DNA of 64,000 nt from an uncultured virus (IMG/VR IMGVR_UViG_3300032227_002278). Taxonomy: Duplodnaviria; Heunggongvirae; Uroviricota; Caudoviricetes. Positions within the stretch are counted from its first letter, which is position 1, and the number at the start of each line of letters is the position of its first letter. The position numbers and the translations under genes are program-made. This document shows, one piece after another, positions 32,177-56,265 of the stretch. The DNA lies in IMG/VR virus record IMGVR_UViG_3300032227_002278. One strand, written 5' to 3'. The notes beneath the pieces were generated by a model. The model was not told the origin of the DNA. It did no database searches and worked only from the letters and a program-made list of their open reading frames with translations.

Positions 32177-33433
32177 GATCTTCGAGCCAAGGAAGCTCCC
32201 GGCTTCAGCCGGGGGAGGAATTGGCTCATAATAAAATTTTAGTCAAGTGATTTTTTTTTTCAATGGCAAGTGTATATAATTATACCATGAAGGCTACGCT
32301 CAAAATTAAATTGCTGACCAACCCAGAAGAATCCAAGAAACTCTTGGACACAATGGAAGTGTTTAATACAGCTTGCCAAGAAATAGCCGAAGTTTGCTAC
32401 AAAAATCAATCAGCAAACAAAGTGACAATTCAAAAAGAAGTTTATTACAATATCAAAGCAAAATACAATCTGTCTGCACAATTGGTAATTCGTTGTATTG
32501 CAAAAGCATGTGAATCATATGCCAAAAACAAAAAGATTTGTCCCAAAATTAAAAAGCACGGCTCAGTAACATATGACCAAAGAATACTAGCGTTCAAAGG
32601 ATTGGACAAAGTTAGCATTACAACAGTCTATGGAAGATTAAAAATTCCTGTTTTGATTAGAGATTATTTTAGAGGTCATGCAAGTAGAATGAAAGGTCAA
32701 TGTGACCTTCTCTATATCAATAGAGAATTCTATTTGTATGCTACTTGCGATTTACCAGAAGATAAAACTGTTGATATTAAAAATGTTATTGGTGTTGATT
32801 TGGGTGTAACCAATATTGCTGTAACATCCGAAAAAGAATTTTTTTCAAATGAAAAAGTTGAAAACAAAAGAACCAAATATGCAAAGCTAAGAAAGCATTT
32901 GCAAAAGAAACAAACCAAATCAGCCAAAAGAAAGCTGAAAAAGATTAGCGGCAAAGAGTCAAGATTCAGAAAGGATGTTAATCATCAGATAAGTAAAAAG
33001 ATCGTTTCCAAGGCAAAAAGCACAAACTCTGCAATAGCACTTGAAGAACTCAAAGGTATTAAAGAGCGGACAATTGTTAAAAAATGCCGTAAGAAACAAA
33101 GAGATAAAAGGAACGCTTGGAGTTTCCATCAGTTGAAGTTGTTTATTAGCTATAAAGCTCAACTGGCTGGCGTTCCTGTTGTCATAGTGAATCCTGCTTA
33201 TACATCGCAAATGTGCCCTAAATGCACAGCAATTGATGCTGATAACAGGAAAACCCAAAGTGAATTTTGTTGCACAGGTTGCAACTACACCGAACATGCT
33301 GATGTTGTTGGGGCAACCAATATAGCATCAGCAGGGGCTGCATCAATCAGCCTATTGTCGTCCGCTAACCAGTTGCAAAAAGCTAGTTAGAATTGGAATG
33401 ACAAGCTCCCGGCTTCAGCCGGGGGTAGTTGAC
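32177..33433 (+). mobile_element. tnpB-only IS200/IS605 (IS1341-like) element inserted 3' of TCAC
   Basis: Subterminal hairpins CCCGGCTTCAGCCGGG at both ends; right end ...GGTAGTTGAC; boundaries fixed by comparison with the 47330-47556 copy. Confidence 0.9.
32287..33390 (+). CDS. tnpB: TnpB RNA-guided nuclease, catalytic triad intact
   Basis: GVDLG, ALEEL, HADVVGA; CPKC...CTGC. Confidence 0.92.
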   Translation: MKATLKIKLLTNPEESKKLLDTMEVFNTACQEIAEVCYKNQSANKVTIQKEVYYNIKAKYNLSAQLVIRCIAKACESYAKNKKICPKIKKHGSVTYDQRILAFKGLDKVSITTVYGRLKIPVLIRDYFRGHASRMKGQCDLLYINREFYLYATCDLPEDKTVDIKNVIGVDLGVTNIAVTSEKEFFSNEKVENKRTKYAKLRKHLQKKQTKSAKRKLKKISGKESRFRKDVNHQISKKIVSKAKSTNSAIALEELKGIKERTIVKKCRKKQRDKRNAWSFHQLKLFISYKAQLAGVPVVIVNPAYTSQMCPKCTAIDADNRKTQSEFCCTGCNYTEHADVVGATNIASAGAASISLLSSANQLQKAS

Positions 33434-41801: not shown

Positions 41802-41968
41802 GGCTGTTCTTTTATGTGTCGGGTGTTGACGAGTTTTGGTTCTTTAAAGAATGGCAAGTCGGAATTACGATAATTCTGAAGGCTGTTCTTTTATGTGTCG
41901 GGTTTGGTGGTGTTGACGAGTAGTCAATGCTGCTTGTTGTTTGTTTATTTACTTTAGGAGGATATTTA

Positions 41969-43072
41969 ATGTCAAGGTCTAAGAGTTCGTCTACTGTTTT
42001 CATCGAAAAAGTTTTGATTGACAATCCCAACATTCGATACAATGATGTTGTGGCTATGGAAGAGTATAACAAAGGTGGTCATTCTTTTGACAATGCGTAT
42101 TTCAATGCTATCAAGTGTCGAATTAAGAAAGTGCAGTCTTATGTATCTACTGGTTCTGTGTCTGCTCCGTCTCATGTGATTAGTTCTGCTCCTGTAGATG
42201 GTAATGATAGTGAGTACAAGTATGATTCTGATACACAGGATTTGATTCCTGCTGTTGACCCTCACTATGTGATTAACGAGGATGCCGCAACATTCTTTGA
42301 GTTAGTCAAGAATATGTCTAACAACAAGAATGTTAATGTGCGTCTTGTTGGTCCGGCTGGTTGTGGTAAGACCAGTTTGGCTATGCAATATGCTGCTAGG
42401 CATAACTTGCCATGTTTTGTTCAGAACTGTGCGAATGTTCGTGAACCAAGAGATTGGTTTGGATATCGCAAGCTGGATGAGAATAAGAATCTGGCTTGGC
42501 ATGAGAGTTTGTTTGTCAAGATGATTGAGACTCCTAATGCTGTGATTGTGTTGGACGAAACTAATCGTTGTCCTATGCACACACTTAACACTCTATATCC
42601 TTTGCTTGACCATCGTAGGAATACATGGCTTGAAGAGGCTGGTAGAACGCTTCAGGTAGCAGAAGGTGTTACTTTCTGGGCTGCAATGAACGAGGGTAAT
42701 CAGTTTACTGGTACTACTCAACTTGATGAAGCATTCTCTGACCGAACTGGTCTGGTGATGGAATGTAAGTTCTTGTCATCAGATGATGAAGCAAAGGTCT
42801 TGCACAATCGAACTGGATTGACAAAGGACAGTTCTTTGCGTCTGGTAGAGATTGCAGAACAAGTGCGTAAGAAAGCGCAGCTTGATACTGGTGACTCTTT
42901 CAGTAAGGTGATATCTACTCGTATGCTGGAAGAAGCTGCTTCAGCTTTCGTAGTAGGTGGTCCTAAGACTATGCACTACACTCTGTTGAATCACTTCTCT
43001 GCTGCTGGTGGAGCAAGCTCTGAGAGGCAGAATCTACTCAAACTGCTCGTTGGTAAGTTTGGGACTCTGTAA
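41969..43072 (+). CDS. MoxR/CbbQ-type AAA+ ATPase
   Basis: GPAGCGKT, IVLDETNR, AAMN...Y/F.GT..LDEAFSDR, ISTRML. Confidence 0.9.
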   Translation: MSRSKSSSTVFIEKVLIDNPNIRYNDVVAMEEYNKGGHSFDNAYFNAIKCRIKKVQSYVSTGSVSAPSHVISSAPVDGNDSEYKYDSDTQDLIPAVDPHYVINEDAATFFELVKNMSNNKNVNVRLVGPAGCGKTSLAMQYAARHNLPCFVQNCANVREPRDWFGYRKLDENKNLAWHESLFVKMIETPNAVIVLDETNRCPMHTLNTLYPLLDHRRNTWLEEAGRTLQVAEGVTFWAAMNEGNQFTGTTQLDEAFSDRTGLVMECKFLSSDDEAKVLHNRTGLTKDSSLRLVEIAEQVRKKAQLDTGDSFSKVISTRMLEEAASAFVVGGPKTMHYTLLNHFSAAGGASSERQNLLKLLVGKFGTL

Positions 43073-43092
43073 TCTCTAGACTTGGATATATG

Positions 43093-43125
43093 CCCCTTGC
43101 TGGCTATAAACCAGCAAGGGGTTTT
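43093..43125 (+). terminator. Intrinsic terminator
   Basis: CCCCTTGCTGG-loop-CCAGCAAGGGG TTTT. Confidence 0.75.
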
Positions 43126-43293
43126 CTTATAAATATATATTTTGAAAAAATGTTTAGAATAAATTATGTTTTTTGAATCTTGTCCTATAATGGTAGTAGG
43201 AAGGAATAAGTTATTCCTTGGAATTACGATAATTCCGAAGCGTATTCTTTTATTTGTCAGGCGGGTTACTTAAAACTTAGAAGGAGGAATGTT

Positions 43294-45486
43294 ATGGTTA
43301 ATCAAGGTGATTTGTTTGGTGATGAGAATAATGAAGAGTTGGAGCGTCTTGCTGACGAGTTTGACAAGAATGATGATTATCTTCTAGAGAAGGAACTAGA
43401 AGAACAAGGTGGCAAGTCTTTCAATCCTGGTACTCATGGTATTCAAGAAAACCATCCTCTTCTGGATGGCTTCAACAAAGATACTGGACGATACGATACA
43501 ACTAACTATTGGGAAGGTGCTTACGGCAGCCGTCGTAAATATACCGACTCTTTACATACTGATAGCTGGAAAGTTACTCCTGTTAAGTCTACCAGCGAAT
43601 ACCTTCGTAACTCCTATTGGGGCAACAGCTGGTACTATGACAGCTATAGCAAGAAGGCTGACCAGAAAGCTCAAGTCCATGAAACTCTACATGAAGTTCT
43701 CAAGGAATTGAACAAGACCATTAACCTTACTTCAAACTCTAAAGACTCTGTTGAGTCTGTTATGAATGTGAAGTATTCTAATGGTGCTGTTATCAATGAC
43801 TTCGAGAGTAACACTCTTTACATATCGCCTAATGTGATGTTGAAAGATGATGATGAAGTTAGGTCTGGTGCAGACTATTATGAGTCTCTTGATGGTTTGA
43901 ATGGTCAAGCTATGTTGTGTTCCTTTATGAAGAAAGGAATTCATGCTGATGCTAATGCAGACTACAAGGAAGCTAAGGAATGGGCAGCAAGAAACATCTT
44001 CATGTGTGATATTCAAGCTAGTGCTGCTGCTGAGATTTTCAGTAAGTGGCCGGGCTTTATGAGTTATATCACAAGTCAGATGCAAGTATTTGGAGTTCAG
44101 AAGGATTATCTTCTGAAGAAGTTTAACCAATCTGTTATCTTGTTGGATGACTTGATTGAGACTTTGTGTTACAATCGTCTTGCTTCTGAAAAGGTTGATT
44201 ACACAATCTTCCATCCTGATATCGTGAAGAAGATGTTGTTGGCAGATAGGGACTTCAATCAGATGATTGATACTCCTTGCAAGTCAGAAGATAGGTTCAA
44301 GAAAGCTCAGCGTATCTACGAATCTATCAGGGATACGCTGAATCTTGAGAAAGCAGAACTTGAGGTTAAATGGAGTCAATCTGGATTATCACTTCCTGGT
44401 AAGTCTAGTGAAGGTGTATCTGGCGAAGGTACTCCTGTATCTGGTGATGATAATGAAGAGGTTGGTAATCCACAAGCTACCAATCAGATTGACAATAGTC
44501 CATCTGATGAGCAGCGTAGGTTTACTGGAGACAACTCCTATAACAACAAGATGGAAGTGGATGGGGATGTTGTATTCAATATCCTTGACCATAACAAGAA
44601 GTTGCGTGAAAGACTCAAGGAACTAGGAGATAAGCTGGCTTCTCCAGCTATATCTTCTGATGAGATTATCAACAAAGAAAAAGTAGTTTACAAGCTCTTG
44701 GTTCCACCTGTCAATGTGGAGACAATCAAGGCTTATGACGAATATGTCAAAATGAACAAAAAGAATATCAATGCAATTAAAGATGCAATGATGTTTCACA
44801 ACAACTATCCTTGGATTCCAAGCTATGGCTTGACTGATGGGGATATCGATGAACACGCTCTCTATAAGATGCACTTTGGAGAGTATGAGCGTTTGTTTGA
44901 AAGAAGGGACCAAGTTACTGAGAAAAGATATCATATCACTCTGGTAATTGACCAGTCTGGTTCAATGTCTGGTGACAAACTGGAACAAGCTAACAAGCTA
45001 TGTATCCTGTTCGCAGAAGCTCTCAAGTTCCTGCGTAATACAGAATACAGTATCTATGGCTTTGAAACCAGAGATATCAATACTTGGGTCTATAAGGATA
45101 AGCTCTACGATAAGCAGAAAGCTCTGATTGAGCCTACTGCTAATGGTGGAACTGCAATGGGGTATCATCTTGCTTCTATTGGAGACAAGGTGATTAACCA
45201 GTATAGTGACTTTGACAACAAGTTCATGTTTGTTATATGTGATGGTTCGCCAACTCATGGAGTAGACAATATGAATAGTTGTCAGTTTACTAATCACTCA
45301 ATCAAACTTTTGAGGAGGCAAGGTATTCAAGTTTATGGAATTGGTATCTTGAATGCTTTCCAAGAAAGGACTGGTAACGAGATCTTTGGTGAAGGCAACT
45401 TTACTGTGATTGATGATATCAAGGGTAGTTTGTCTATCCTGACTAACAGACTGAGGAAGTATCTGCAAAAGTCTTCTAAGGTCTGA
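43294..45486 (+). CDS. VWA-domain protein (CobT-like partner of the AAA ATPase)
   Basis: MIDAS LVIDQSGSM, GGT, ICDGSP, VYGIGI. Confidence 0.88.
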   Translation: MVNQGDLFGDENNEELERLADEFDKNDDYLLEKELEEQGGKSFNPGTHGIQENHPLLDGFNKDTGRYDTTNYWEGAYGSRRKYTDSLHTDSWKVTPVKSTSEYLRNSYWGNSWYYDSYSKKADQKAQVHETLHEVLKELNKTINLTSNSKDSVESVMNVKYSNGAVINDFESNTLYISPNVMLKDDDEVRSGADYYESLDGLNGQAMLCSFMKKGIHADANADYKEAKEWAARNIFMCDIQASAAAEIFSKWPGFMSYITSQMQVFGVQKDYLLKKFNQSVILLDDLIETLCYNRLASEKVDYTIFHPDIVKKMLLADRDFNQMIDTPCKSEDRFKKAQRIYESIRDTLNLEKAELEVKWSQSGLSLPGKSSEGVSGEGTPVSGDDNEEVGNPQATNQIDNSPSDEQRRFTGDNSYNNKMEVDGDVVFNILDHNKKLRERLKELGDKLASPAISSDEIINKEKVVYKLLVPPVNVETIKAYDEYVKMNKKNINAIKDAMMFHNNYPWIPSYGLTDGDIDEHALYKMHFGEYERLFERRDQVTEKRYHITLVIDQSGSMSGDKLEQANKLCILFAEALKFLRNTEYSIYGFETRDINTWVYKDKLYDKQKALIEPTANGGTAMGYHLASIGDKVINQYSDFDNKFMFVICDGSPTHGVDNMNSCQFTNHSIKLLRRQGIQVYGIGILNAFQERTGNEIFGEGNFTVIDDIKGSLSILTNRLRKYLQKSSKV

Positions 45487-47251: not shown

Positions 47252-47257
47252 TATACC

Positions 47258-47296
47258 AAAGCCTAGCACCATCTATCTTGATGGTGCTAGGCTTTT
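47258..47296. terminator. Bidirectional intrinsic terminator
   Basis: AAAGCCTAGCACCATC / GATGGTGCTAGGCTTTT. Confidence 0.8.
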
Positions 47297-47321
47297 ATTC
47301 AGGGGTTGTACTATTTTAAAG

Positions 47322-47620
47322 AGCCACCCGTCAACTACCCCCAGCTAAAGCAGGGAGCTTGTCATTCCAAGTTTCGTGCTGACTTTTAGTCCAGTTCCGG
47401 CTTTCAGCCGGAACACACGGAATCTGAAATCAGATTCAACGGACGACATTAGGCTGATTGATGCAGCCCTATGTTTAATTATAGTGTTGTTTTGTTTAAG
47501 TTCAAGAGCCAATTCCTCCCCCGGCTAAAGCCGGGAGCTTCCTTGGCTCGGAGATCGTGAGTACTGCCCTCACCTTGTCCAATTTACGAAATTGGTGCAT
47601 TTCTTCTCTGCCAGAGTGGC
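47322..47620 (-). tRNA. trnT: tRNA-Thr(CGU) interrupted by a mini-IS between the T-arm and the acceptor 3' strand
   Basis: GCCACTC..CCAAT-TTCGTAA-ATTGG..GTGAG-GGCAGTA-CTCAC (47620-47557) joins GGGTGGC-T (47329-47322); TATAAT upstream. Confidence 0.75.
47330..47556 (-). mobile_element. 227-bp ORF-less IS200/IS605 derivative carrying an omegaRNA
   Basis: Ends near-identical to the 32177-33433 element; same TCAC flank. Confidence 0.9.
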
Positions 47621-47714
47621 GTGATAGTTAATTATAGTTTCACTTTTAACTCACACCAAAAAATAATTACGATAATTTTTAAGTCTAATCTTTTAGGTGC
47701 GGAGGAGTGGTTAA

Positions 47715-48143
47715 ATGGAAGAGATGGAACTCATCGAGTTTGAGTTTGAATATGATAATTATACTTTCTTGTATATTCAGAAGACCTTTTTAAAGAAATG
47801 GCTGGTCGAATCCGAAGTCGATGCCATAAGTGAAGATGCACAAGAACTGTTAAAAGACAATTACTTTAACTATGATTGTTTCCAATATGGAAGGTCTTTG
47901 TTTTTAGATACAAGGAATAATCCAGTTATGGTCCCTAATGATGTTACAGATATAAATGAAGGTGACATTGTACTGTTTCAACAGTATGAATGTATTGTTT
48001 TAAAGAAGATGTTTTTTGGTAGTAAGCATCCTTATTATTTGTTAGGTGGTAAGAGCGAGTATTCTGATAGTGTAAGGGCGAAGATCGGAAAGAATCCTGT
48101 GAGCTATACGCTTCTGAGGAAAGTTTTTTCCTCGGAAAACTAA
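47715..48143 (+). CDS. Hypothetical protein
   Basis: Motif, GGAGGAG RBS. Confidence 0.65.
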   Translation: MEEMELIEFEFEYDNYTFLYIQKTFLKKWLVESEVDAISEDAQELLKDNYFNYDCFQYGRSLFLDTRNNPVMVPNDVTDINEGDIVLFQQYECIVLKKMFFGSKHPYYLLGGKSEYSDSVRAKIGKNPVSYTLLRKVFSSEN

Positions 48144-48186
48144 AAAAAATCTCCCTGTCCTATAATGAAGGCATGGGGGATTTGCA

Positions 48187-48822
48187 ATGGTTCGTGTTTT
48201 TAGTGCGTTAATTTTGCTTCTGGCGGGTTTTCTTCCAAAGTGTGAAGCTGGTTGAGGCAAGCCAGCTTTGCCCCAGTCTGGGGCGTATTACAAGCCTGTA
48301 ATCATCACACAATCGCAGCTTGAGATTCTGGACATTGATATTAAAGCCAGAAGGATAGCTGTAACAATGGAAACGGAAAAGAATGAAGAGCAGGTGGAGC
48401 TAGCTGTAAAGAGCGGCGATAGGATTCATAGGATTGCTGCTGCTTTTTATTATCAGAACAAGAGAGAACCTAGTGCTTGTTTAATGAATTTGCTTGCTGA
48501 CCAAGATCCATTGGTGGTAGAAGCTGCTAGATTAGCATTGGTGATAATTGCCAATGACAAGAGATACAGGAGACCTGGTGCATATCATCAAATGCATATC
48601 ATCGATTTTGGTCCTTGGATTTTTAGTCCTGGGAAAGAGAAAAGTGGTGGACAGGATGATATGAACGGGTTAACTGTTAGAAGGGAAGCGATTGACTTGT
48701 GGCAGTCGCATTTTGATAAGGTAGAGGCTAACAACCGTAAAGTTGAAGCTGAACAAAAGGCTAAGATGGAACGGGAGAAAGCTAAGGAGAATGACCCTAG
48801 AAAGGTATTAGGTGTGCAATGA
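48187..48822 (+). CDS. Secreted HEAT-like protein with in-frame UGA at codon 23 (candidate selenoprotein)
   Basis: Promoter TGTCCTATAAT, GGGGGA RBS, signal peptide MVRVFSALILLLAGFLPKCEAG, TGA 48253-48255, hairpin 48270-48284, frame continues into the 48268 ORF. Confidence 0.65.
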
Positions 48823-50035: not shown

Positions 50036-50614
50036 ATGTCGAATGTTCCTGCTTCCCAAGTTCCTGCTTCCACCACCACCAAGGCTGCTCGGACGATTGT
50101 TCCGTTCAAGTATCTGGTGACTCATGACGAGAACCTCAAGAAGCAATTCCTTGAGTTTTGTGCTTGTCATGGTGTTGATGAGACTGCTGAGAAGTTCTCA
50201 ATCAGCCCCGCTACTGTGTATTCGGTGCTTCGTGCCCTGAATGCTTATGTTTCCACAGTTCGCCCAGTGTATGACACTAGCCCTGAGAAGTTGGCTAAGG
50301 CTGCTGAATTGCTTAGGGCTGGTCGCCGTGCGACTTCTGTTGCTAAGGAGTTAAACCTTTCCACAAATACTGTGTATAAGGTTGCTTCTGATAACAACAT
50401 CACTCTCCAAAAGGGTATTGAGGCTGCTCCTATCAGCCAAGAAACTCTGAACAAGGTTCTTGCTGACTTGCGTGGTGGTAAGTCTGCTAAGGCTGTCAGT
50501 CGTGATAGCGGCATCGCCTATGTAAAGGTGCTGGCGATGGCTGAAGCTAACAACATTACTCTCGACCGCAAGGCAAAGGGTATCCGTGGTATGATCCTCC
50601 CACCACAATCGTAA
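50036..50614 (+). CDS. Multi-HTH DNA-binding protein
   Basis: Three HTH-like repeats (TAEKFSISPATVY, VAKELNLSTNTVY, VSRDSGIAYVKV). Confidence 0.75.
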   Translation: MSNVPASQVPASTTTKAARTIVPFKYLVTHDENLKKQFLEFCACHGVDETAEKFSISPATVYSVLRALNAYVSTVRPVYDTSPEKLAKAAELLRAGRRATSVAKELNLSTNTVYKVASDNNITLQKGIEAAPISQETLNKVLADLRGGKSAKAVSRDSGIAYVKVLAMAEANNITLDRKAKGIRGMILPPQS

Positions 50615-50699
50615 CATGACCCTGGGGGGAGCTATACTCCCCCCTTCTCCTCATATCCCCCCTATATTCTTAGGGGGGTCTTTTATATCAAGAGGAATC

Positions 50700-51359
50700 A
50701 TGTTAAGTAAAGAAGATTTTGAACTAAAACTGTTCGCTAAAAAATGTGCATTCATTATGTACAAATCTGGCGAATTTCTACCAGATGAAATCAAGGAGGA
50801 ATTTGTATCTTTTGAAAGTATGGATTTCTTCCACGATTTTAGCTTTAATTGCACTAGAGTCTTAATAGCTGAATATTTAAGACTACTGATGCAAGAATAT
50901 AAAATAAAGTTTGTTAAGTGTGAACTTATTGATAGCAGTAAGATTGTTAGAAATTCAAACACCTATCAATACACTTATGAACTTCCCGACAATGAGTTTC
51001 TTATTATAGCATCTATGTCAGGTAAAAATGTGAGTGCTACAGGTAGCATGTATGCTATTGCAGACTCAGTATATTCATACTACATCCAATCTGGATGTGT
51101 GAATTGTAAGTATAGTGAAGAAGGATGTGATTGCTGTGGTATGAATCGTGCCAGAAAAGCAATACATAATTCTGATATCCTAACATTCAAAAAGACTTGT
51201 GAACCATTCTTAAAACTGATTGGTAACAAGTTGGAACCTCTAGAAGAATTTATCAAATGGTCTATCCAGTATGAAAAAGATTCTGAGGAAAATAGGGATG
51301 AATTAGGATATTTCACTCTAGATGATGATGATGAAGATTCTGAACCAGATTCAGAATAA
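50700..51359 (+). CDS. Hypothetical protein
   Basis: GAGGA RBS; Cys cluster, acidic tail. Confidence 0.6.
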   Translation: MLSKEDFELKLFAKKCAFIMYKSGEFLPDEIKEEFVSFESMDFFHDFSFNCTRVLIAEYLRLLMQEYKIKFVKCELIDSSKIVRNSNTYQYTYELPDNEFLIIASMSGKNVSATGSMYAIADSVYSYYIQSGCVNCKYSEEGCDCCGMNRARKAIHNSDILTFKKTCEPFLKLIGNKLEPLEEFIKWSIQYEKDSEENRDELGYFTLDDDDEDSEPDSE

Positions 51360-56053: not shown

Positions 56054-56099
56054 AATAGATAGTTGAATTGACTTAACTTTGTGGTTATTATTATATCAT

Positions 56100-56172
56100 G
56101 CAGAGTGTGCTCGACGGTATTGAGCAGCATCCTTATAAGGTGCCACAAATGGTCCGACTCCATTACTCTGCA
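56100..56172 (+). tRNA. trnI: tRNA-Ile(UAU)
   Basis: GCAGAGT/ACTCTGC acceptor; GCATC-CTTATAA-GGTGC; AATGG-TCCGACT-CCATT. Confidence 0.8.
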
Positions 56173-56180
56173 ATGTTATA

Positions 56181-56265
56181 GCTATCGTGGCGGAACAGGC
56201 AGACGCAACAGACTTAAAATCTGTCGGGATTATATCCCGTACCAGTTCGATTCTGGTCGATAGCA
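56181..56265 (+). tRNA. trnL: tRNA-Leu(UAA)
   Basis: ACAGA-CTTAAAA-TCTGT; long variable arm; TTCGA T-loop. Confidence 0.93.

Follow-up and report, generated by a model that had tools for sequence, protein, structure and literature searches.

An in-frame UGA, very probably a selenocysteine codon, in the gene of a predicted exported HEAT-like protein shared by a virus-like element and Planctomycetes

The locus and its features

An uncultured virus record (IMG/VR IMGVR_UViG_3300032227_002278; Caudoviricetes) carries, at positions 48187 to 48822, a gene whose reading frame is interrupted by a single in-frame TGA and in which a GC-rich hairpin follows that codon. Here, we report a computational analysis of this gene and its relatives; "the window" denotes the whole stretch of DNA analyzed (64,000 nucleotides [nt]; GC content, 34.7%). 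Sequence comparisons make it very likely that the UGA at 48253 is a selenocysteine (Sec) codon with a bacterial-type Sec insertion sequence (SECIS), within the gene of a predicted exported, HEAT-like protein; its family, which also occurs in Sec-decoding freshwater Planctomycetes, is uncatalogued.

The frame from ATG 48187 is open, apart from TGA 48253, as far as the TGA at 48820 to 48822, and homologues align to the coding sequence on both sides of the internal TGA. The 22-codon hydrophobic N terminus before the TGA reads MVRVFSALILLLAGFLPKCEAG, and the peptide directly after it is GKPALPQSG. The original prediction, made from the letters alone, had proposed a GGGGGA ribosome binding site (RBS), an upstream ATG, the in-frame TGA, and the hairpin, and all four were found in place when the sequence was read directly; a purine-rich stretch precedes the upstream ATG in each homologue too. 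It had also described the TTG at 48268 as an annotated start with no RBS. The TTG is the ORF-finder start (ORF, open reading frame), but a GAGG (48254 to 48257) sits 10 nt upstream of it. The promoter that had been proposed came down to a TATAAT hexamer at 48161 to 48166, with no call by a sigma-70 scan. The features of the gene were as follows.

48175 to 48180, + strand: Shine-Dalgarno-like GGGGGA, 6 nt upstream of ATG 48187 (read directly)
48187 to 48822, + strand: complete coding sequence of 211 codons, one of them UGA (probable Sec), then the terminal TGA
48187 to 48249, + strand: predicted signal peptide, residues 1 to 21, MVRVFSALILLLAGFLPKCEA, with a hydrophobic core and small residues at -3/-1
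48244 to 48269, + strand: lower 10-bp hairpin enclosing the UGA (GAAGCUGGUU/AGCCAGCUUU; RNAfold)
48253 to 48255, + strand: in-frame UGA, residue 23, read as probable Sec; TGA at the homologous codon in relatives
48268 to 48270, + strand: TTG, annotated start, better read as internal Leu28
48270 to 48284, + strand: SECIS-like apical hairpin GCCCCA-GUC-UGGGGC, a perfect inverted repeat, loop G 20 nt past the UGA
48310 to 48807, + strand: helical HEAT-like repeat domain, residues 42 to 207 (AlphaFold2 helices)
48820 to 48822, + strand: terminal TGA, used as the actual stop; it overlaps the ATG (48819) of the gene that follows

The lower hairpin (48244 to 48269) is partly conserved; the alignment fold has 5 pairs, 3 of them invariant.

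Conservation of the UGA, the frame, and the hairpin

A protein search returned 15 homologues (148 to 184 residues), every one of them called from a start after the TGA. DNA was available for seven metagenome loci (L001 to L007; GC content, 39% to 69%). L001 was 99% identical to the window, L002, L003, and L004 were identical to one another, and L005 and L007 were close to each other, leaving four distinct metagenome relatives (L002 to L004 as one, L005, L006, and L007). The homologous codon is TGA in all four, as it is in 11 of the 12 strong chromosomal homologues described below and in three distant relatives (L110, L112, and L114); identity of the TGA spans homologues down to about 25 to 30% identity. 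Each metagenome relative has an upstream ATG, a hydrophobic leader,...AKAKAG, the TGA, and then G/C-K/N-P-x-L-P-R/Q-S-G. The homologues thus keep TGA, and not a codon for Trp, Arg, or Gly, and this, together with a hairpin conserved as RNA and not as peptide, favors the proposal in the original prediction that the UGA is decoded as Sec.

Over the 15 codons flanking the TGA, the proportions of synonymous (pS) and nonsynonymous (pN) differences were 0.39 to 0.79 and 0.09 to 0.22, respectively, in 9 of 10 pairs; for the near-identical pair L005/L007, codons around the TGA gave a pS of 0.08 versus a pN of 0.06. The check for sequencing error that had been proposed came out in favor of the TGA, since contigs from four sequencing runs, each of a different study, show no change at 48253 to 48255. 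Strain differences inside 48187 to 48819 are synonymous in the read-through frame at 17 of 19 sites; these include codons 12 and 21 on the 5' side of the TGA and 25, 28, 33, and 43 on the 3' side. L006 has CTG in place of the TTG at 48268, and contigs of runs X5 and X8 have TTA, which keeps Leu and is no longer a start codon. The first canonical start in L006 does not come until 25 codons past the TGA, by which point the conserved LPRSG and EIL residues have been passed. Taken together, the conservation of the frame, the strain variants, and the loss of the start in L006, X5, and X8 rule out a sequencing error, a nonsense mutation of recent origin, and an obligatory TTG start.

The window has only 8 distinct GC-rich perfect hairpins (10 rows of script output, with two overlapping pairs), and we read the seven other than that at 48270 to 48284 as lying between genes or at gene ends. 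The hairpin at 48270 to 48284 is built from codons that are rare in the window (CCC, 10% of Pro; GGG, 7.1% of Gly; GCG, 6.2% of Ala; CAG, 26% of Gln). Bacterial SECIS elements, as modeled by bSECISearch, have a loop starting with G or GU, 16 to 37 nt after the UGA. A strict script (at least 5 consecutive pairs, loop of 3 to 5 nt, GUC at loop position 1 or 2, and loop G 16 to 40 nt after the UGA) found a hairpin with a G(G)UC loop, 19 to 31 nt downstream, after 13 of 19 family UGAs; that of L002 makes a 14th by eye, rejected by the script only for a second G-U pair in its extended stem. By comparison, such hairpins followed 15 of the 2457 TGAs of the window and 207 of the 33,825 in 1.16 Mb of Planctomycete sequence, a background of 0.6%.

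The stem changes in ways that preserve it. The closing A-U pair of the window is G-C in L006 (a compensatory change), and a C-G pair is U-G in L002. In L005 and L007, GCG has become CCA in the next codon and the third base of the Ser codon is G, which restores a 5-bp stem with a GGUC loop by a register shift. Stems with a GGUC loop recur in other subfamilies over unrelated peptide and in a different codon phase: GGCGGCA-GGUC-UGCCGCC encodes AAAGLPP, CCCUU-GGUC-AAGGG encodes PLGQG, and further examples are CCCCC-GGUC-GGGGG, GGACUC-GGUC-GAGUUC, and GAACUC-GGUC-GGGUUC. The peptides encoded at the loop across subfamilies are LPRSG, AAAGLPP, PLGQG, and LGRV. As a positive control, the Sec codon of selD in a Planctomycete genome (G001) is followed by UCGCA-GGUC(U)-UGCGA. 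The GGUC loop of most family members is also the apical loop of the Escherichia coli fdhF SECIS. These comparisons indicate that the hairpin is selected as RNA and not for the peptide that it encodes.

The chromosomal relatives lie in Planctomycetes. In L002 to L004, the gene sits in a low-GC stretch (37 to 45%) abutting bacterial genes of 65 to 70% GC that encode an E1 dehydrogenase, a short-chain dehydrogenase, and an MFS transporter. This E1 dehydrogenase is 93% identical to that of G001, a freshwater Planctomycetaceae metagenome-assembled genome (MAG), and its next-best matches were from Pirellulales and other Planctomycetota. An early pattern scan of genome contigs with the first family alignment gave no match; the chromosomal homologues came from a later genome search. 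A family-profile search of five such genomes found homologues in G001 and G002 only, and only these two of the five had selB above the cut-off, an adjacent selA, selD, and a tRNA-Sec (69 bits; called tRNA-SeC(tca) by ARAGORN). The selD gene itself has an in-frame TGA in three genomes (G001:C366:7710-8642, G447:C61:44228-45160, and G456:C93:6046-6972); in G001, its context is...SCAG-U-AGK, and the GGUC-loop hairpin lies about 33 nt downstream.

The profile was then applied to 201 genomes of the Planctomycete family of G001. Matches at an E value of ≤1e-37, which alone were counted as family members, numbered 12, out of 108 genomes matched at an E value of ≤1e-6; 8 loci were inspected from the weaker tier (E values of 1e-37 to 1e-6). 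Out of the 12 strong homologues, 11 have a signal peptide, [A/G]-[G/D], TGA, a linker, and the domain, and the twelfth (L107) reads V-S-A-C-F with no stop. The more distant Sec forms read G-U-G-P-R-G-C (L110 and L114) or Y-U-M-S-C (L112), and the more distant Cys forms read A-x-A-Q-C-x-H-G-G-G (L108, L109, L111, and L113); in all of these, and in the Cys form L107, the Sec or Cys stands directly after the signal peptide. Among the 12 carrier genomes, selA was found in 10; the remaining two, both small MAGs, carry an in-frame TGA in selD and must therefore decode Sec. An even sample across the phylum was uninformative (2 of 301 genomes matched, namely, the seed genome and one weak HEAT-type match).

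The predicted protein and the decoding of the UGA

Signal peptides obey the von Heijne -3,-1 rule, in which small residues mark the cleavage site. In all 19 family members tabulated, a site with small residues at -3/-1 lies one residue ahead of the UGA (AKA|G-U, AEA|G-U, CEA|G-U, TRG|G-U, TKA|D-U, SRA|Y-U, and others), and 18 of the 19 have an ATG-started hydrophobic leader before this site. In the window, the leader core reaches a 9-residue Kyte-Doolittle maximum of 3.08, and C-E-A precedes G-U. By the same rule, the mature protein would begin X-U, so the suggestion in the original prediction of a mature G-U-G N terminus extends, as a prediction, to the whole family. A lipobox with Sec as the lipid-modified residue was considered and set aside: most members have a charged residue (K, E, or R) at -3, and a resemblance to a lipobox is seen in the Cys form L107 (V-S-A-C) alone.

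The AlphaFold2 model (mean pLDDT, 86.9) has helical repeats over residues 42 to 207 and low confidence over the N-terminal 40 residues. Neither Pfam profile reached its gathering cut-off (HEAT_2 [PF13646], 15.1 to 18.1 bits versus 27.7; HEAT [PF02985], 11 to 15.9 bits versus 23.5), and Foldseek against the PDB gave nothing at an E value of ≤0.001, with weak matches to HEAT-like alphaRep proteins at E values of ≥0.5. No family for the protein was found in NCBIfam or PHROGs. With scores below the cut-offs and only the helical-repeat fold alike, we call the protein HEAT-like and do not file it as a HEAT member. Several subfamilies have a Cys near Sec, as U-C (L007), U-x-x-C (L112), or U-x4-C (L110 and L114), which hints at a selenylsulfide redox pair. 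Cys98 in the domain is invariant within the subfamily of the window and is not conserved family-wide.

A separate observation concerns the C terminus. Many members end in a conserved tail,...DPRKVLGVQ,...DVYDILGLDRKKD, or...EILGI/V, located at 48790 to 48819 in the window and present in L095, L097, L100, L103, and L104 and in proteins P0025, P0027, P0031, P0033, P0041, and P0049. This tail resembles the start of a J-domain; the remainder of a J-domain is absent.

The mechanism that we propose is drawn from the established bacterial Sec pathway. Host SelB, with GTP and Sec-tRNA(Sec), would bind the hairpin at 48270 to 48284 on the translating mRNA and deliver Sec at the UGA, about 20 nt 5' of the G-U-C loop, and translation would run on to the stop at 48820. 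The N-terminal 21 residues would act as a signal peptide of the Sec export pathway, and cleavage after C-E-A would leave G-U-G-K-P. The selenol would then stand at mature residue 2, on a flexible tether of about 18 residues joined to the HEAT-like helical domain. The copy in the window would depend on the SelA, SelB, SelC, and SelD of its host and on the selenium supply. Our working guess is a redox- or metal-active N-terminal selenol that a binding scaffold displays in the cell envelope.

Several findings weigh against the assignment of Sec. The loop in the window reads A-GUC-U (GUC closed by A-U), not the GGUC of its relatives, loops of UUGG, UGGG, or AGUU are found at comparable distances in the five loci reading T-R-G-G-U, and L112 is without a GUC-loop hairpin. 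No Rfam match to 48100 to 48400 was found at E values up to 10. The GAGG before the TTG makes some internal initiation possible. No Sec machinery genes, tRNA-Sec included, were found in the 64-kb window. The match between Cys and Sec forms is positional, relative to the signal peptide, with a linker that is not alignable residue by residue. Finally, selA is present in 183 of the 201 genomes of that Planctomycete family, so its co-occurrence with the gene is not discriminating; it still establishes that the carriers are Sec decoders.

Other readings of the locus were weighed against Sec insertion. The UGA could be read through without Sec, with a near-cognate tRNA inserting Trp, Cys, or Arg and the hairpin merely stimulating the event; the inserted residue is not readable from the sequence, and a conserved frame with a downstream hairpin would fit stimulated read-through too. 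We nevertheless consider this unlikely, as the hairpin is of the type found in selD, a genuine Sec gene of the same bacterial family, Sec-decoding genes occur in 12 of 12 carrier genomes, and Cys, the usual counterpart of Sec, occupies the apparently equivalent position in relatives. The whole conserved domain also needs the UGA to be passed, which argues for an efficient, dedicated mechanism. Very unlikely, in our judgment, is an arrangement of two genes, in which a 22-residue leader ends at a real UGA, the HEAT-like protein starts at TTG 48268, and the hairpin is regulatory or couples the two. The choice of gene callers, which place all 15 database proteins after the TGA, would fit it, as would the GAGG, present in 4 of 5 aligned sequences; against this, L007 has GATG in place of GAGG, the TTG is replaced in L006 (CTG) and in X5 and X8 (TTA), and the first canonical start of L006 lies so far downstream that conserved residues would be lost. 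The codons between TGA and TTG vary mainly at third positions. Among bacterial subfamilies, the sequence after the UGA varies, yet 18 of 19 members keep the order of signal peptide, cleavage site, one residue, and UGA, and a leader that stops one residue beyond its cleavage site would make no sense as a separate product.

A lone in-frame TGA in one sequence would permit a nonsense-mutated pseudogene, a sequencing error, or a genome-wide sense TGA. The identity of the TGA in independent contigs, in the four runs, and in distant homologues speaks against an artifact or a pseudogene, and purifying selection on the frame speaks against the latter. As for an alternative code, TGA ends 24 of the 86 window ORFs, this gene included, and is therefore an ordinary stop in this genome; no other window ORF needs TGA read-through, and a scan of the 64-kb window found no comparable pair of ORFs joined by one TGA with such a structure. 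We regard all three explanations as extremely improbable, and Sec insertion remains the favored reading of the UGA.

In its in-frame UGA, a stem-loop within about 20 to 30 nt, a loop starting with G or GU, a predicted dependence on selA/selB/selC/selD, and relatives with Cys at what appears to be the equivalent position, the family resembles bacterial SelB/SECIS genes such as E. coli fdhF. It differs from genes of the fdhF type in that it is not a catalogued oxidoreductase and that Sec stands at predicted mature residue 2, not in an enzyme active site; the copy in the window, moreover, is carried by a mobile or phage-like genome rich in AT, and the first G is missing from its loop. The Sec-containing SelD of Planctomycetes (G001, G447, and G456) likewise has an in-frame TGA and, in G001, a hairpin of the same loop type, but it is a cytoplasmic enzyme with Sec in a known active-site loop, and its hairpin loop lies about 33 nt from the UGA versus 19 to 31 nt here. 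HEAT and alphaRep proteins (PF13646 and PF02985; PDB 3ltj and related entries) share helical repeats with the domain, with weak sequence and fold matches, and we know of no HEAT protein that carries Sec or this N-terminal module. Sec machinery and selenoproteins are documented in Planctomycetes (PMC4807772); Table S9 of that paper lists no HEAT-like family, and its one "hypothetical" entry comes with no sequence for comparison.

Gene callers split every member of the family, so an exported family would be misannotated in Planctomycete genomes and freshwater metagenomes, and at their cut-offs neither Pfam nor NCBIfam contains it. The protein would be a selenoprotein without an oxidoreductase fold, with Sec beside the predicted signal-peptide cleavage site, an arrangement that we did not find described. 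The family offers a defined case in which the role of a selenol at the N terminus of an envelope protein can be studied.

The element that carries the gene

The window has 86 ORFs (table 11) covering 87% of its length. No capsid, portal, terminase, or tail genes were found among the 70 ORFs scanned against PHROGs, or by Pfam, in the 64 kb in view. The matches obtained were to DNA methyltransferases, an SNF2 helicase, nucleases, HNH endonucleases, a DUF5131 protein, and Hsp20, and the window also contains two TnpB-like transposases and a CobS-like ATPase with a CobT-like VWA protein. Searches of the locus (blastn and tblastn) against 50,697 phage records (INPHARED) gave no match, and scans of IMG/VR with the family alignment and with the window helicase gave no close relative; phage relatives of the helicase are only 27 to 34% identical. 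Of the claim in the original prediction that this is a phage-encoded selenoprotein, the selenoprotein part is supported by the conserved UGA, hairpin, and frame, and the phage part is not, with no structural genes in view.

Two adjacent tRNA genes at 56099 to 56265, tRNA-Ile(UAU) and tRNA-Leu(UAA), decode AT-rich codons, consistent with an AT-rich element in a GC-richer host. In Planctomycete genomes, tRNA-UAU has been linked to recently acquired genes (PMC4807772). A 14-mer, AATTACGATAATTC, occurs 27 times in the window with ≤2 mismatches, versus 1.3 copies expected. Each copy is codirectional with the next gene, and the copies checked sit shortly upstream of a start, so that the 14-mer looks like an element-specific promoter motif. 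Example sites were as follows.

47665 to 47678, + strand: repeated promoter-like 14-mer copy, upstream of the preceding gene (47715 to 48143)
41863, 43222, 45529, 46023, 47665, 49720, 54718, 56541, 57766, and 59808, + strand: 14-mer sites
17039 and 21496, - strand: 14-mer sites

The copy at 47665 may be the promoter of a two-gene transcript comprising the preceding gene and the selenoprotein gene. Some genes of the window recur beside the metagenome relatives: L006 has homologues of window ORFs 22175, 51362, and 51832, L007 has one of 51832, and L005 has a weak partial match to ORF 38967 (40% identity over 47 residues). None of the genes common to the window and L005 to L007 was found in the chromosomal bacterial loci, from which it would follow that the subfamily of the window travels in a related mobile gene set. 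At L003 5000 to 7015, the GC content drops sharply beside Planctomycete core genes, with a junction that is identical in three assemblies (L002, L003, and L004); the selenoprotein gene may thus lie in a low-GC island that has become integrated there.

On balance, we lean toward the window being phage; the AT-codon tRNAs and the repeated 14-mer are consistent with, and no proof of, a large AT-rich phage of a GC-richer host. We put forward only tentatively, and regard as rather doubtful, the fuller proposal of a Planctomycete virus with a host-Sec-dependent gene, which would be the first bacteriophage selenoprotein and a new functional class, with an N-terminal selenol as a redox or metal-binding "hook," flexibly tethered to a HEAT-like scaffold in the envelope. 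Full-text literature searches, with subscription-journal selenoproteome catalogues outside their reach, turned up no report of a bacteriophage selenoprotein. The viral selenoproteins named in the available text of a recoding review are only the glutathione peroxidases of two poxviruses, molluscum contagiosum virus and fowlpox virus (PMC8310308). Like the window gene, these are virus-borne and have a UGA that needs host Sec decoding, and the fowlpox SECIS lies in the coding region (PMC8310308); the poxvirus case differs in its eukaryotic SECIS/SBP2 system and its captured known enzyme, whereas the window gene belongs to a bacterial system and an undescribed family, in an element that is only plausibly viral. 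For huge phages, the available part of one report records tRNA-Sec genes and speculates on selenoproteins, describing no phage selenoprotein gene (PMC10747093); they suggest a phage part in Sec decoding, and the window, unlike them, is without tRNA-Sec.

If the window is phage, it would represent a bacterial virus whose gene expression relies on the Sec pathway of its host, and, should the Planctomycete-virus proposal be true, phage fitness would be coupled to selenium availability. The gene may also help to identify the host, for which a Sec-decoding Planctomycete is expected.

Minor observations were made on the surroundings of the gene and its homologues. Directly upstream of the homologue in L005 (2892 to 5842) are a tubulin-like (PF13809) gene and a VWA_2 gene; in the window, an AAA_5 ATPase and a VWA protein are encoded at 41927 to 45486, 2.7 to 6 kb upstream of the gene. 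Identical GC-rich hairpins, CCCGGCTTCAGCCGGG, at 32198 to 32213 and 33408 to 33423 flank the TnpB-like ORF 32263 to 33390 and may be IS200/IS605-type ends. Similar hairpins lie at 47396 to 47412 and 47520 to 47535, in an ORF-free gap (47252 to 47714) just upstream of the studied operon. A further GC-rich hairpin, GGGGAGCTATACTCCCC, at 50626 to 50642, just inside the start of ORF 50616 to 51359, could serve as a terminator for the HTH gene that precedes this ORF and ends at 50614.

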